Positions 12,292 through 64,000 of a stretch of 64,000 nt of DNA are shown here, piece by piece. The notes under the pieces are model-generated. The model was given only the letters and a program-made list of their open reading frames with translations, was not told the DNA's origin and did not search any database. Origin of the DNA: a virus (taxonomy: Duplodnaviria > Heunggongvirae > Uroviricota > Caudoviricetes); the IMG/VR virus record IMGVR_UViG_3300032225_001769, positions 76,612-140,611 of that record; one strand, given 5' to 3'. Position 1 is the stretch's first letter; each line of letters begins with the position of its first letter. The position numbers and the translations under genes were made by a program.

Positions 12292-13044
12292 TCAGACTGT
12301 CACAGTCTTTTTCTTACTGTAACCGCTGAACTGTTTGTTAGAACGACGGGCACGGATTGCAGCACCCCAGGATGAACCTTTCGGTTGCGTATTGTGTACA
12401 AGCAAACCGAACGGTTTATCACCGAAACAATGTGAATCATCATGGTCAATCTCCAGACCCTCAGCATTAGCATCCTCTTCAGTCTTGAAGACTTTAGCAT
12501 AACGAGGAAACAAACCCTGCTCGATCATGATATCAAACACGCCACCATAAGATGCGGTAAGATAGAAGTTATCGAGCAGATTCTCTACACCAAACTCTTG
12601 GAAAATATGAAGAGATTTACTATAGCAATAGAACTTCAGATCAGGATTAGACTTTGCAACCTTATTCCATGCTTGAAGATACAACGGATTGAAAAAGTCT
12701 CCGCTCTCATGAATACGAACCAATTCCGTATTGCGTGTGCGAAAGTGTTGCAAAGCAGTGTTAGTCTGATCGGCAGTATAATCCACACCGAGGCGCAGAT
12801 AGTCAACAATAGTCCCAAGATTCTCGGCGCGACTATTGAATGCGCCACTATACTGCACCTCTCCACTAGCAGCAAAGCAGCGGAATTGAGTGTGCTCGCC
12901 ATCACGAATGGTGCGCTTGCCATTGTTATCAACAACTGCCCAAGACTTACACTCTAATGCACCGGGGCAAGTCTTTCCAGCGGGAAGATTGAAGATCAGG
13001 GTTTGCTTGCCAAGTTTGGCGTTACCCTTGGTGAAATTAAGCAT
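12292..13044 (-). CDS. hypothetical Cys/His-rich protein (250 aa), enzyme-sized
   Basis: ORF track; GC-rich; cassette 13045-13134 upstream; function not recognised. Confidence 0.5.
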   Translation of the reverse strand: MLNFTKGNAKLGKQTLIFNLPAGKTCPGALECKSWAVVDNNGKRTIRDGEHTQFRCFAASGEVQYSGAFNSRAENLGTIVDYLRLGVDYTADQTNTALQHFRTRNTELVRIHESGDFFNPLYLQAWNKVAKSNPDLKFYCYSKSLHIFQEFGVENLLDNFYLTASYGGVFDIMIEQGLFPRYAKVFKTEEDANAEGLEIDHDDSHCFGDKPFGLLVHNTQPKGSSWGAAIRARRSNKQFSGYSKKKTVTV

Positions 13045-14533: not shown

Positions 14534-14620
14534 TGAAGGTGTCCGTTTGGTTGACTTTGTAATCATAGGGCACCTAGAGGGGATTCTAGGTGCCTCTGGG
14601 ACAGTTCTCAGACTGGCACA
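14534..14620 (-). promoter_or_regulatory. cassette element subfamily II: box + hairpin GGCACCTAGA-ATCCCC-TCTAGGTGCC + CCCTATGAT -10 + leader TACAAAGTCAACCAAA
   Basis: the same ~85-bp unit recurs at 15040-15125, 15633-15717, 16115-16201, 16606-16696, 18672-18753 and 19534-19623. Confidence 0.6.
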
Positions 14621-15039
14621 GTGTTCAGATTCTGAAGAGTAAAGTATGCTTCAATCAGATTCTCCACACTGAGAATTGTTCCATCTTTGCTATAAAAAGT
14701 CACACCAGATTCCATACCAGTTCTGCTACTGTAGTTTGCACTATCAATACGCATCACTTTGCTGGTCATAATAGGAAGAAACTGATCGAGCAACCAATCC
14801 CATACATCAGTATTACTATTGCATTCTTCAGTATCAATCTCAACTATAATCTTATCAGCAACTTGACGAACATAAGCATTGAAATCTAGGTCCAGTTCCC
14901 CATCAACTTCACCAAACTCATCAAAGATGAAGTTCGGTTCGCTGATACAACGCTTTGCAAGACCATCAAGAAAAGACTCAAGATTGAAGTTTTCCACTAC
15001 AGCACATGTAGCAGTTGAAGTGAAATGAGTGTAAGACAT
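14608..15039 (-). CDS. acidic hypothetical protein (143 aa from MSYTHFTST...)
   Basis: track 14608..15081 trimmed (MPYDYKVNQRTPQP is leader). Confidence 0.5.
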   Translation of the reverse strand: MSYTHFTSTATCAVVENFNLESFLDGLAKRCISEPNFIFDEFGEVDGELDLDFNAYVRQVADKIIVEIDTEECNSNTDVWDWLLDQFLPIMTSKVMRIDSANYSSRTGMESGVTFYSKDGTILSVENLIEAYFTLQNLNTVPV

Positions 15040-15116
15040 TGGTTGGGGGGTCCTTTGGTTGACTTTGTAATCATAGGGCACCTAGAGGGGATTCTAGGTG
15101 CCGCTGTGCCAGTTGT

Positions 15117-15632
15117 TCAGGTGTCTAACAATGCCTTAAGGGACTTAATTGTATCTTTATATTTCTTCAATTCTTCCTCAAGTTCTTTAATCTTGAGGTC
15201 TTTATCATCTTGAGGTTCTTCTTTTTTCTCAAGAATGGTTCCAATTAAGTTAGTATCCAGAAGGTTAGCACCCTCAAGGTTAGCACCCTCAAGGTTAGCA
15301 CCCTCAAGGATAGCACGCCAAAGGTTAGCACCCCAAAGGTTAGCACCCCAAAGGTTAGCACCCCGAAGGTCAGCATTCATAAGGTTAGCATCCTGAAGGT
15401 CAGCACCCCGAAGGTCAGCATCCTCAAGGTTAGCACCCTCAAGGTTAGCACCCCGAAGGTAAGCACCCCGAAGGTAAGCATTCACAAGGTCAGCATCCTC
15501 AAGGTTAGCACCCACAAGGTTAGCACCCCGAAGGTTAGCACCCCGAAGGTTAGCACCCACAAGGTTAGCACCCCAAAGGTTAGCACCCCAAAGGTAAGCA
15601 CCCGGTTCGATTTTGTATCCGTTGACGATCAT
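15117..15632 (-). CDS. pentapeptide-repeat protein with C-terminal charged coiled-coil tail
   Basis: 171 aa from [13 protein letters not shown]; >25 tandem A(N/D)LxG pentapeptides ([15 protein letters not shown]..), DNA-level 15-nt repeats 15240-15600. Confidence 0.8.
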
Positions 15633-15715
15633 GGTGAGATTCCTTTGGTTGACTTTGTAATCATAAGGCACCTAGAGGGGATTCTAGGTGCCGCTGTGCC
15701 AGTTGTCAGAGTGTC

Positions 15716-16114: not shown

Positions 16115-16197
16115 GTGGTTGGGGGTGTGTGGTTGACTTTGTAATCATAGGGCACCTAGAGGGGATTCTAGGTGCCGCTGTGACAGTTCTTAAAGTG

Positions 16198-16605: not shown

Positions 16606-16691
16606 CGGTTGAATGGTGTCTTTGGTTGACTTTGTAATCATAGACGCACCTAGAGGGGATTCTAGGTGCCTCTGGGACAGTTCTTAAAGTG

Positions 16692-18671: not shown

Positions 18672-18741
18672 GAGGTGTCTTTGGTTGACTTTGTAATCAT
18701 AAGGCACCTAGAGGGGATTCTAGGTGCCTCTGGGACAGTTC

Positions 18742-21212: not shown

Positions 21213-21812
21213 TTAAAACAATCTCACTCTATTTGATTTATCAATACCTTTTGCTTTTTGATATGTAGAAAGACCACCAGCATTAGAAATAAATCCAGTC
21301 ACAGTACATTGAAACTTTTGATTTGCTCCTTTTTTTGCCCTCTCAATTCGTTCATCTAGAGATGAACTTAAATACCCCTTTCTTGACCGCTCGCTTCTTT
21401 GTTCTGGAGTTAAGGATGCATGTCCCTTTATAACTGATTCCCTTCTTTGCTCTGGTGTTCTACTTGCCTGTGCCTTTATTCCCCATTCTCTTCTTTGTTC
21501 TGGAGTTAGACTTGCACTTATTTTTTTTCTATGTTCTTCGGTAACGATAAGTCCAGATGCTCCGTCACCACCATCAGTTTTATTGCGAAGAATACCAGTC
21601 CCATTATCTTTTCTACCAAAGACTTTTATCATATATTCTTCGTGCTTAAATGATTCTTCTTCAGTTAGATTCTGTTTGAGAAAGATTATTCTTGATTTGT
21701 CTTTTGGTGGTTTATATATTCTGTTTTTAGAATGAATCCTGCTTCCTTTTCCTTTACCAATATAATAAGGTGTTTTATCTACTCTCAAATAAGCATAAGT
21801 ATAATAATTCAT
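21213..21812 (-). CDS. GIY-YIG homing endonuclease, paralog of 17317..17895
   Basis: 199 aa; N-terminal ~100 aa nearly identical to other copy (YYTYAYLRVDKTPYYIGKGKG). Confidence 0.8.
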   Translation of the reverse strand: MNYYTYAYLRVDKTPYYIGKGKGSRIHSKNRIYKPPKDKSRIIFLKQNLTEEESFKHEEYMIKVFGRKDNGTGILRNKTDGGDGASGLIVTEEHRKKISASLTPEQRREWGIKAQASRTPEQRRESVIKGHASLTPEQRSERSRKGYLSSSLDERIERAKKGANQKFQCTVTGFISNAGGLSTYQKAKGIDKSNRVRLF

Positions 21813-41509: not shown

Positions 41510-42079
41510 TCAGGTGCTGCTATTGTGACAGTTCACCAAGTGTCCGTATTTCTCATATGCCATAACCATTAAGCAAATTTCTTCGGTTGCATTTGGATGT
41601 TCAGCAACCCAATAGCGAACATTAAAATCCTCATCAGTTGCAAGAAGTTCTAGAGTTTCTGGTGGTGTATTAGGATTATAAGCAACCCCACAGCGAACAC
41701 TAGAATCCTCATCAGTTGCAAGAAGTTCTAGAGTTTCTGGTGGTGTATTGGGATTTTTAGCAACCCCCCAGCGAACACTAGAATCCTCATCAGTTGCAAG
41801 AAGTTCTAGAGTTTCTGGTGGTGTATTGGGATTTTTAGCAACCCGCCAGCGAACATTAAAATCCTCATCAGTTGCAAGAAGTTCTAGAGTTTCTGGTGGT
41901 GTATTAGGATTATAAGCAACACCCATACGAATATACCAATGTTCATCATTCGCAAGATATTCAAGAATTTCAATTGGTATACTATCAATGGGGGATCTTA
42001 CGGTACTACATCTTACATCAAAACTTTCGTGTTTTGCATAAGTCCACCATTCATCTAGAGTGAGTTCAGTTTGCGTCAT
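41510..42079 (-). CDS. HEAT-repeat protein (PBS-lyase HEAT-like repeats)
   Basis: 189 aa; five tandem ~30-aa repeats NPNTPPETLELLATDEDxxVRxxVAx encoded by 90-nt DNA repeats 41640-41930. Confidence 0.7.
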   Translation of the reverse strand: MTQTELTLDEWWTYAKHESFDVRCSTVRSPIDSIPIEILEYLANDEHWYIRMGVAYNPNTPPETLELLATDEDFNVRWRVAKNPNTPPETLELLATDEDSSVRWGVAKNPNTPPETLELLATDEDSSVRCGVAYNPNTPPETLELLATDEDFNVRYWVAEHPNATEEICLMVMAYEKYGHLVNCHNSST

Positions 42080-61439: not shown

Positions 61440-61514
61440 TAGCGGTGATGGGATTCGAACCCATACTGTCGAAATTTTAAGTTTCGTGCCTGCTGCCAGT
61501 TGGGCTACACCGCC
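61440..61514 (-). tRNA. tRNA, anticodon UAA (Leu by anticodon) but type-I short variable arm; no encoded CCA
   Basis: manual cloverleaf: acceptor GGCGGTG/CACCGCT, anticodon stem CGAAA/TTTCG loop CTTAAAA, variable ACAGT, T-arm ATGGG-TTCGAAT-CCCAT, D-loop with GG. Confidence 0.7.
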
Positions 61515-63044: not shown

Positions 63045-64000
63045 TAATCACATCCACATACTGGACTGAAAATTCCATTGTGTTTCCAGTTGCTTGATTC
63101 ACACTAGCATAATGAATTTGAATATTAGTACCAGCATATCTAACATCAAAAGCAGATCCGCCAGGACTGTAAAAACCTATTCCACCATCTGCTGGATCTA
63201 AATATTCGATTTGTTTTTCAAAAGGGCCACCATTTATATTATCACTCACAACACCTGTCGCTGACGGGTGAGTATGCCCAGGATCATAAGGAAGGTGATT
63301 GTGATTCACAAGCGGTACTGTCCTATTGGTAAATACGCTCGTAAAATCATAAGTACCACCAGAACCGCCACCAGTTCCCGATACAACTCTCAGTGCTTTA
63401 TTGTTATGATCAGTTACCTGCGTCCACCCCACTGGAGCAGATGCTTGGCAGAAGAGCATTCTAGTTCCCGATGGTATTACTGAATTATAGGTGCCACTAA
63501 TAGTACCATTTACAGTCAAATTACCATTGACAGTTAATCCCGCTGCTGTAAATAGTGCCCAAGTGGTATAAGGATTGGGCGATTGTATATAAAGCCCCCC
63601 ACCAATAGTTGGAACTCTAACTGCCGAATTTGTACCATCACCGTAAAATCCGGTAGTAACCCCGTAACCAAGATTTACTCCATTTACTGTTATTGCATTA
63701 CTTCCGTCAAAGGTAAAATTTGGAGAAGTAGTGGCAACATTTGATGAGTTCTTATAAAGAACTCCATTGGCAGATCCAGTATTATTCAATACTGCTGTTC
63801 CTGCTGCTGTTCCCGCTGTTGCACCCGCTGTTGCACCCGCTGTTGCACCCGCTGTTGCTGCATTTGCTGCAGATGCTGATGCTGCGGAAGCAGAGTTTGC
63901 TGCATTTGTTGCAGAAGTTCCTGCTTGACCGGCAGAAGTTCCTGCTGCGGAAGCAGAGTTTGCTGCATTTGTTGCAGAAATTCCTGCTGCGGAAGCAGAG
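63028..64000 (-). CDS. fibre protein with phage tail-collar domain preceded by Ala/Ser/Thr/Gly-rich linker; 3' part of a gene that continues past window end
   Basis: frame of track ORF 63028..63789 (TTG 'start') stays open upstream to 64000 (...SASAAGISATNAANSASAAGTSAGQAGTSATNAANSASAA..ATAGATAGATAGATAGTAAGTAVLNNTGSANG...); collar pattern ..GWTQVTDHNNKALRVVSGTGGGSGGTYDF..HNHLPYDPGHTHP. Confidence 0.6.
   Translation of the reverse strand, partial: SASAAGISATNAANSASAAGTSAGQAGTSATNAANSASAASASAANAATAGATAGATAGATAGTAAGTAVLNNTGSANGVLYKNSSNVATTSPNFTFDGSNAITVNGVNLGYGVTTGFYGDGTNSAVRVPTIGGGLYIQSPNPYTTWALFTAAGLTVNGNLTVNGTISGTYNSVIPSGTRMLFCQASAPVGWTQVTDHNNKALRVVSGTGGGSGGTYDFTSVFTNRTVPLVNHNHLPYDPGHTHPSATGVVSDNINGGPFEKQIEYLDPADGGIGFYSPGGSAFDVRYAGTNIQIHYASVNQATGNTMEFSVQYVDVIIASKN
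63880..64000. repeat. 42-nt tandem repeat (TGCGGAAGCAGAGTTTGCTGCATTTGTTGCAGAARTTCCTGC) encoding AGTSATNAANSASA units
   Basis: ~2.5 copies visible before window end. Confidence 0.6.

Follow-up and report, generated by a model that had tools for sequence, protein, structure and literature searches.

We identified a pentapeptide-repeat gene, in a genome stretch that we assign to a T4-like cyanomyovirus, whose product belongs to a family with constant ends and a hypervariable repeat array. The two ends and the surrounding DNA are nearly identical in the closest related phage, despite near-total difference in the array between them. We tentatively favour the reading that the product is an early-expressed cytoplasmic solenoid that presents a variable surface on a constant handle and may act in phage-host (or phage-phage) conflict, an interpretation that is possible rather than probable. 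An array that differs between near-identical phages appears to fit a host-conflict protein better than it fits a fixed DNA mimic of the Qnr/MfpA type.

Phages commonly encode pentapeptide-repeat proteins, a well-known class. The combination of features found in this subfamily appears to be undescribed: conserved caps with a coiled-coil tail, a hypervariable, unit-shuffled array of codon-identical units, tandem paralogs, and cassettes of the PeSL type in T4-like cyanophages. Pentapeptide-repeat genes are annotated across hundreds of phage genomes (479 GenBank phage records have pentapeptide-repeat matches), and in the literature that we searched no such phage protein had been studied functionally or given a function. 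A review of pentapeptide-repeat proteins does not mention phages (PMC8145042).

Gene structure and predicted fold

The stretch of DNA analysed here (the window) comprises 64,000 nucleotides of IMG/VR virus record IMGVR_UViG_3300032225_001769. The gene starts with an ATG at position 15632 and ends with a stop codon at 15117-15119 on the minus strand (Table 1). A Shine-Dalgarno (SD) sequence, AAAGGA (15641-15646), lies ahead of this ATG, and the N-terminus that begins there (MxxNGY(E/K)I(K/E)P) is kept in relatives. A longer open reading frame that starts from a GTG and reaches 15671 in the ORF listing was rejected as the gene start; the extension is a conserved 5'UTR, a stretch that recurs before several neighbouring genes.

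Table 1. Features of the pentapeptide-repeat gene and of the modules at its two ends (positions in the window).
Feature	Position	Strand	Description
Pentapeptide-repeat CDS	15117..15632	(-)	171 aa + stop; ORF translation, PF00805 match, ends conserved among relatives
N-cap	15600..15632	(-)	Residues 1-11; motif M-x-x-N-G-Y-(E/K)-I-(K/E)-P; conserved in ~20 relatives; 36/36 nt identical in closest relative
Pentapeptide array	15225..15599	(-)	25 pentapeptides, residues 12-136, C-cap units included; uninterrupted, in register
Acidic linker and amphipathic helix	15120..15224	(-)	Residues 137-171, linker KEEPQDDKD; conserved family 'handle'; tail 128/129 nt identical in closest relative (L002)
Upstream PeSL-like module	15633..15715	(-)	Motif, hairpin, -10-like hexamer, conserved 5'UTR, SD
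Motif of upstream module	15695-15715	(-)	GACAC-N6-AACTGGCACA
Hairpin of upstream module	15667-15692	(-)	Perfect 10-bp stem, GGCACCTAGA/ATCCCC/TCTAGGTGCC
-10-like hexamer of upstream module	15660-15665	(-)	TATGAT
Downstream PeSL-like module	15040..15125	(-)	Motif 15105-15125, hairpin 15077-15102, UTR of next cassette

The protein belongs to the pentapeptide repeat family (Pfam accession PF00805, score 198.7 bits, gathering cut-off 20.2, E=5.9e-60). Its array is encoded by a DNA tandem repeat with a 15-nt unit (Tandem Repeats Finder, 22.9 copies at 15261-15603, 86% matches, score 406), and the first 23 units all follow the pattern GCT-NNC-CTT-NNG-NNT. The whole protein is acidic (pI 4.58, array net charge -7), and no signal peptide or membrane segment was found in the 171-aa sequence. 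Read from the sequence, the heptad a/d positions of the tail are hydrophobic (I148, L151, L155, Y158, I162, L165 and L169).

An initial AlphaFold model from the single sequence (pLDDT 72, poor TM-scores) was superseded by a model built from a 40-sequence alignment, which has a mean pLDDT of 94.3. [quoted passage not shown] Foldseek searches of the PDB with this model returned pentapeptide-repeat structures exclusively as top matches. These include Np275/276 (2j8k, E=6.7e-12, 54% identity), two solenoids designed on the repeat consensus, 5dra (rmsd 1.5 Å over 129 columns) and 4yfo (rmsd 1.9 Å over 129 columns), and Rfr23 (rmsd 0.9 Å over 92 columns). MfpA, Qnr and AlbG are also structural matches, with identities of just 13-25%. 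A preliminary description of this DNA had proposed an uninterrupted run of A(N/D)LxG pentapeptides encoded by a 15-nt tandem repeat, a beta-helical fold for that run, a KE-rich helical tail after it, and a place for the gene in a phage cassette. The repeat analysis and the predicted structure bear out the first three of these points, and the genomic setting described below agrees with the fourth.

Genomic setting of the gene

Several genes point to the assignment of the window to a T4-like cyanomyovirus. It encodes a gp6 baseplate wedge protein (phrog_219, E=3e-205) that is 66-67% identical to its counterparts in Synechococcus phages S-SKS1 and S-SRM01, and also a long tail fibre, a Dda-like helicase and an RnlA-like ligase. 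In nucleotide sequence, the match of the window to GenBank phages amounts to 176 nt only. The pentapeptide-repeat gene lies outside the structural modules, in a hyperplastic region that consists of a ~45-kb run of small same-strand ORFs.

PeSLs are composite terminator/early-promoter elements that mediate cassette shuffling in T4-like phages (PMC2839356, PMC4122927). The gene studied here forms a single-gene cassette with a PeSL-like terminator/promoter module at each end. By alignment the conserved module spans ~70 nt, with a stable hairpin and promoter-like hexamers. Near-identical hairpins occur in six copies in the window, against 0 expected. The motif GACAC-N6-AACTGKCACA occurs in 40 copies, against 0.15 expected, and nearly all of these lie in the 10-50 kb interval, on the coding strand. 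The copy downstream of the gene (15105-15125) overlaps the final CDS codons GAC ACC TGA, where the protein ends in DT. A module with the same order of motif, hairpin, TATAAT and UTR also borders genes of relatives. A scan for known RNA families found nothing but the tRNA.

The window contains a cassette at 14608-15039 together with one element; both are missing between the same neighbours in the contig of the closest relative (L001). Small neighbouring genes are drawn from a common pool across contigs, and their order differs by contig. As in published PeSL cassettes (Arbiol 2010, PMC2839356; Comeau 2014, PMC4122927), a stem-loop and a sigma-70-like promoter lie between small ORFs in many copies, and a whole cassette bounded by elements is inserted or deleted between close relatives; the sequence pattern is thus that of a PeSL-bounded cassette. 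The elements of the window differ in sequence from the published coliphage and vibriophage PeSLs and add a conserved motif that overlaps stop codons. This PeSL-like architecture makes it probable that the gene has a sigma-70-type promoter of its own and is expressed early; no late-type TATAAATA promoter was found at the gene. We take the product to be a cytoplasmic accessory protein of the cyanophage.

A family of related proteins in viral and metagenomic contigs

Whole-protein homology searches were swamped by repeat-to-repeat similarity and revealed no orthologues. Because this similarity dominated the matches, we switched to seeds from the non-repeat tail, which recovered ~22 relatives in viral contigs and nine metagenome stretches. 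The closest relative, on a syntenic contig (L001/L002), was located through a hairpin search of IMG/VR. Overall, we identified ~35 relatives on viral and metagenomic contigs with the same N-cap, C-cap and tail. A search with the tail only against 1.84 billion representative proteins returned 14 clusters, every one of which is this family. The KE-rich tail had zero matches in 50,697 GenBank phage records, and the family is absent from these cultured and deposited phages. A search of PHROGs matched only families of unknown function (PHROG 7713 and others), and a search of PADLOC-DB matched 0 defence families at E<=0.01.

Family members share the N-cap M-x-x-NGY(E/K)I(K/E)P, an array of whole units, the C-cap (T)GTILEKK and the tail. 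Complete members contain 6-33 units, and the smallest member is 71 aa long. Contigs encode one to five tandem paralogs, with two to five in several contigs. Some paralogs have an array and no tail (L019-L022, P0010). In other proteins, the module formed by N-cap, array and C-cap is fused to a different C-terminal region, which is DUF5758 in two cases (P0025, P0084) and an unnamed ~100-aa domain in three (P0036, P0064, P0118). The NGYxIxP N-cap is found in these five proteins and also in P0033.

Variation in the array

In the closest relative, 128 of the 130 nt upstream of the gene and 59 of the 60 nt downstream are identical to the window, and the flanking genes are 95.6-95.9% identical. The N-cap is unchanged and the tail differs by one synonymous change (Table 1), so that flanks, N-cap and tail are 98.5-100% identical. 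The arrays, by contrast, comprise 25 units in the window and 22 in the relative, share two unit types, and have five units as their longest common stretch of identical units. Other pairs of relatives differ in a similar manner: L008 and L012 are separated by a clean 15-unit indel in arrays that are otherwise identical, and L010 and L011 share their last nine units and nothing else. Indels always involve whole units or blocks. Short-read assembly of 15-nt repeats can go wrong; against this, independent assemblies of different samples gave the same arrays (L019-L022, L017=L018, L003=L031, L032=L036).

Within the window array, all variation falls on exposed residues (pentapeptide positions 2, 4 and 5). 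The 23 core units contain zero variable third codon positions, and heterozygosity at codon positions 1-2 of residues 2, 4 and 5 is 0.04-0.61. The variable sites of the consensus unit are A4, A5, G10, A11, G13 and G14. A diversity-generating retroelement was rejected as a source of this variation: the variable nucleotides are not adenine-specific, and the variation lies between tandem units rather than between a template repeat and a variable repeat. On a minimum spanning tree of the units, the window array shows 0 synonymous and 18 nonsynonymous changes. For the pooled family the tree shows 78 synonymous and 409 nonsynonymous changes (omega-like ratio 1.7, synonymous deficit p=6e-5), a nonsynonymous count that is inflated by intra-unit recombination. 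By site, the fourfold sites account for 13 (Ala codons) and 10 (Leu codons) changes on the tree, and positions 1-2 of the exposed codons for 21-85.

The uniform codons of the array are rare in this phage (GCT 23%, AAC 19%, GAC 21%, CGG 3%, GAG 28% and GTG 16% of their codon families), and the GC content of the array is 54%, against 38% for the genome. Codon bias was rejected as the source of third-position invariance, as the array codons are a minority of their codon families here. Distant members have settled on other uniform codons, namely GCC (L017), AAT (L019) and GCC/AAT/GGC (L025). At the level of sequence, this drift to different uniform codons is a signature of concerted evolution. The family thereby provides a clean natural experiment, in which constant caps and tail stand beside an array that is rewritten between near-identical phages, with variation confined to the surface.

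Tandem repeats are mutationally unstable, and part of the variability could be neutral.

Relation to Qnr and MfpA

The preliminary description had placed the protein among Qnr/MfpA-like DNA mimics. In such a reading, an acidic solenoid would imitate B-DNA and titrate host gyrase, a restriction enzyme or another nuclease, as MfpA, Qnr, AlbG and McbG do with topoisomerases. The window protein does share the Rfr fold and overall acidity with these proteins. Family arrays are neutral to acidic and none is basic, and the C-terminal helix, which could oligomerise, recalls that of the dimeric gyrase-targeting proteins, whose defining features have been described (PMC8145042, PMC10886550). A pentapeptide-repeat homologue of a Listeria phage is likewise encoded in an early operon, in the terminal repeat (PMC12282133). 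At the level of family models, however, the window protein falls far below the NCBIfam cut-offs for Qnr (45.1 against 240), MfpA (56 against 360) and QnrA/B/C/D/E/S/VC (20-49 against 425-500), and the low identity in the structural alignments agrees with this separation. Its 25 units correspond to ~6 coils, compared with ~8-10 coils per Qnr/MfpA monomer, and the range of 6-33 units in the family leaves no conserved length. The phage array also lacks loops.

At the level of sequence, charge is no more constant than length. Array net charge in the family ranges from -1 to -13 with 4-16 Lys and Arg residues, so that some arrays are near-neutral, and this pattern is not coherent along a face. A test at lag 4 found no stacking of same-class residues along a face of the solenoid (z=-0.1). 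The window solenoid carries an Arg-Arg-Arg ladder along one face, and exposed Trp, Val and Phe are common. The predicted helix also differs in its placement. In MfpA and Qnr, an 11-12-residue C-terminal helix caps the solenoid and builds a rigid head-to-head rod (PMC8145042), whereas the phage helix, as modelled in the monomer, is 30 aa long and is set off from the solenoid by a linker that would be flexible, so that it does not form a cap. Mimicry by fold type alone, moreover, does not confer anti-defence activity, as McbG and QnrB failed to substitute for Ocr against BREX (PMC7261183). Variation at the family level further argues against a precise DNA-shaped ligand. The proposed Qnr/MfpA-like mimicry therefore does not hold up well against these data, and we consider it distinctly unlikely. 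The protein falls outside the Qnr/MfpA group, and it may still act as some kind of decoy. These results advise caution when phage pentapeptide proteins are annotated across the board as Qnr-like DNA mimics or as resistance genes.

Proposed function

In the explanation that we favour, the gene would encode a small accessory protein made early from the promoter of its PeSL-like module. Its constant parts are the two caps (with GTILEKK as the C-cap), the Ala/Leu structural core, the acidic linker and the amphipathic helix, and this helix may oligomerise the protein or dock it onto a conserved partner. Unit number and the outward-facing residues of each pentapeptide vary, and the array would be reshuffled as its 15-nt units slip or recombine out of register. 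The variable surface of the solenoid would be the working part; it would bind, decoy or inhibit a partner that evolves fast and could be a host defence component. Hypervariability, paralog expansion and early-type promoters make an anti-defence role plausible. Counting against this explanation, the absence of same-class stacking on a face means that the data reveal no coherent binding surface.

That absence agrees better with an alternative in which the tail and caps are the functional parts and the solenoid is an inert, length-tolerant spacer or solubility module, its variation a neutral by-product of slippage or unequal recombination. Tail and caps are the sole parts conserved family-wide, complete members exist with only ~6 units (P0127, P0128), and indels of whole units or blocks are expected from slippage. 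Neutral homogenisation should flatten all sites alike, however, and the synonymous sites are near-invariant where the exposed-residue sites are highly diverse. Paralogs without a tail also retain the array, and the pairing of the N-cap, array and C-cap module with other C-terminal domains suggests that the array is itself a shared and retained module. On balance, an inert solenoid seems somewhat unlikely. The same hypervariability is typical of receptor-binding proteins, and fibres are commonly built as a solenoid plus a coiled coil, so that a virion or fibre-like protein can also be envisaged, with the coiled coil attached to the particle and the variable solenoid in contact with the cell surface. 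A 990-position profile (phrog_923) matches residues 22-167. We regard a virion role as extremely improbable given the location of the gene in a small-ORF hyperplastic region, its sigma-70-type promoter module without a late-type promoter, and the very small size of the family members.

A more specific form of the favoured conflict role would treat these proteins as a 'contingency' repeat family, in which recombination-reshuffled solenoids on a coiled-coil handle would diversify as decoys for, or inhibitors of, components of host immunity. Tandem paralogs, where there are two to five, could co-assemble through their shared tail, and the genome-atypical uniformity of codons would be retained for the ease of recombination that it gives the array. 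The targets could be cyanobacterial NACHT (NLR-like) proteins with pentapeptide sensors. In this elaborated form the proposal is rather unlikely.

A host protein provides a lead in this direction. Among the matches listed from 185,579 reference genomes, a single genome, the MAG of an uncultured cyanobacterium, encodes an NLR-like STAND NTPase of 954 aa with the architecture NNH3-NACHT-pentapeptide array. The consensus-type array of this protein resembles that of the phage and has the same C-cap at its end, ANLKGTILEGKK. Pentapeptide repeats have been listed as one kind of sensor repeat in anti-phage bacterial NACHT proteins (10.1101/2022.07.19.500537), and the conflict systems of cyanobacteria are also described as having pentapeptide arrays as a variable module (PMC7159879). 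As a special case of the favoured reading, the phage protein might mimic or compete with such host sensors and so shield a phage trigger or poison NACHT assembly. The likeness is confined to the generic repeat consensus and the short C-cap and is seen in this one genome, and we consider such sensor mimicry very unlikely. The codons of the host array (GCA/GCG-AAT-CTT-GAA-GGN) differ throughout from those of the phage array, which argues against any recent exchange between the two. Recent capture from a host NACHT-pentapeptide gene was rejected at the DNA level on the same grounds.

Comparison with other repeat proteins

Repeat arrays with related properties occur in immune receptors. The WD40, ANK and TPR arrays of fungal NLR proteins consist of near-identical DNA units, vary at exposed positions and change in unit number by recombination. 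The phage array resembles NLR/STAND repeat arrays in all three respects. Unlike those receptors, it is on the virus side, has no NTPase domain and has just a short helix joined to it. Should the array prove to be a binding surface that diversifies, the family would be the viral equivalent of the hypervariable sensor repeats in host NLR-like immunity. If so, the small, soluble protein with its separable modules would also be tractable for finding targets of early cyanophage proteins.

Among proteins of known structure or family, the closest resemblance is to the cyanobacterial consensus-type pentapeptide proteins Np275/Np276 (Nostoc punctiforme), HetL/All3740, Rfr23 and Alr5209 and to the designed 'beta1' solenoids, with which the window protein has the A(N/D)LxG consensus and the Rfr fold in common. 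HetL matches it with E=2e-28 (phmmer), and the scores of the window protein against the NCBIfam equivalog models lie below the cut-offs for both HetL (97.2 against 260) and Alr5209 (99.1 against 125). Compared with these cyanobacterial proteins, the window protein is phage-encoded, has an N-cap, a C-cap and a coiled-coil tail of its own, and carries an array that is hypervariable in length and surface. Other phage pentapeptide-repeat proteins share the repeat consensus, and some share the N-cap, but they carry DUF5758 or other C-terminal domains in place of the KE-rich tail.

Repeated intergenic elements and cassette structure

We identified two kinds of repeated intergenic sequence in the window. 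The first is a 26-nt hairpin (GGCACCTAGAATCCCCTCTAGGTGCC), perfect in five of its six copies. Each copy is enclosed by a conserved intergenic module of ~70 nt that carries promoter-like hexamers and a common 5′UTR. Judged by their sequence, these modules are cassette boundaries resembling PeSLs (promoter-early stem-loops), the terminator/promoter elements found between small ORFs of T4-like phages.

The second element, GACAC-N6-AACTG(G/T)CACA, occurs 40 times in the window against an expectation of 0.15. It usually starts at a stop codon or directly past it, and is followed by a hairpin that varies from site to site and then by a TATAAT-like box. Genes in related contigs are flanked by this motif as well.

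One single-gene cassette differs between close relatives. It encodes a 143-aa ORF without a match in a Pfam search and is placed between the pentapeptide gene and a 60-aa ORF. The whole cassette is missing from the otherwise syntenic relative L001, and repeated elements bound this indel.

Features of the window and of the cyanobacterial stretch L029
Feature	Position	Strand	Remarks
GACAC-N6-AACTG(G/T)CACA sites (n = 40)	10049-52319	nearly all minus	
Gp88-family protein	12292-13044	minus	PF17338, E=3e-39; within small-ORF region
26-nt hairpin GGCACCTAGAATCCCCTCTAGGTGCC, 6 copies	14569-14594, 15077-15102, 15667-15692, 16151-16176, 16645-16670, 18703-18728	minus	
Single-gene cassette, 143-aa ORF	14608-15039, plus hairpin element 14569-14594	minus	
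Two paralogous ORFs, ~195 aa	17317-17895 and 21213-21812	minus	
79-aa ORF, sigma-70 region-4-type helix-turn-helix	17993-18232	minus	PF08281, E=2e-6, marginally over the cut-off
Second repeat protein with internally homogenised units	41510-42079 (repeats 41578-41981)	minus	
tRNA-Leu(TAA) gene	61440-61514	minus	adjoins tail-fibre module
12-nt tandem repeat, CTGTTGCACCCG-like	63792-64000		continues past window end
NNH3-NACHT-pentapeptide-repeat protein, 954 aa, NLR-like	L029 382-3246	+	cyanobacterial MAG contig CAKZHE010000060.1

Pentapeptide paralogs and a cyanobacterial protein with a similar array

Two to five pentapeptide paralogs stand in tandem in several related contigs (L019-L022 (4543-6775), L030, L032, L036, L004, L008, L011 and L012). 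Within one cluster the tails are almost identical, whereas the arrays differ. Some clustered paralogs lack the tail and end in ..GTILEGLKL. The sensor array of the L029 NACHT protein shares its consensus type and its C-cap (GTILEGKK) with the phage family, but the codons differ.

Other repeats and small genes

The second repeat protein consists of four tandem units of 78 nt (26 aa) that share 81-90% nucleotide identity and read ..VRxxVAxNPNTPPETLELLATDED... By eye, these look like HEAT-like or LRV-like helical repeats. On the minus strand, the CTGTTGCACCCG-like sequence probably codes for a protein repeat rich in Ala, Gly and Thr.

The ~195-aa paralogs share 72-84% nucleotide identity across parts of their length, and their N-terminus appears GIY-YIG-like on inspection by eye (YxYxxxxxxxPYYIGKGKG). 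A Pfam search at E<=0.01 returned no match for either. Homologues lie close to pentapeptide genes in four compared stretches (L006, L007, L009 and L015). These proteins are possibly homing endonucleases.

The 79-aa ORF with the helix-turn-helix may encode a small phage transcription factor or a sigma-appropriation-type protein. It lies in the same early-type region as the pentapeptide gene.
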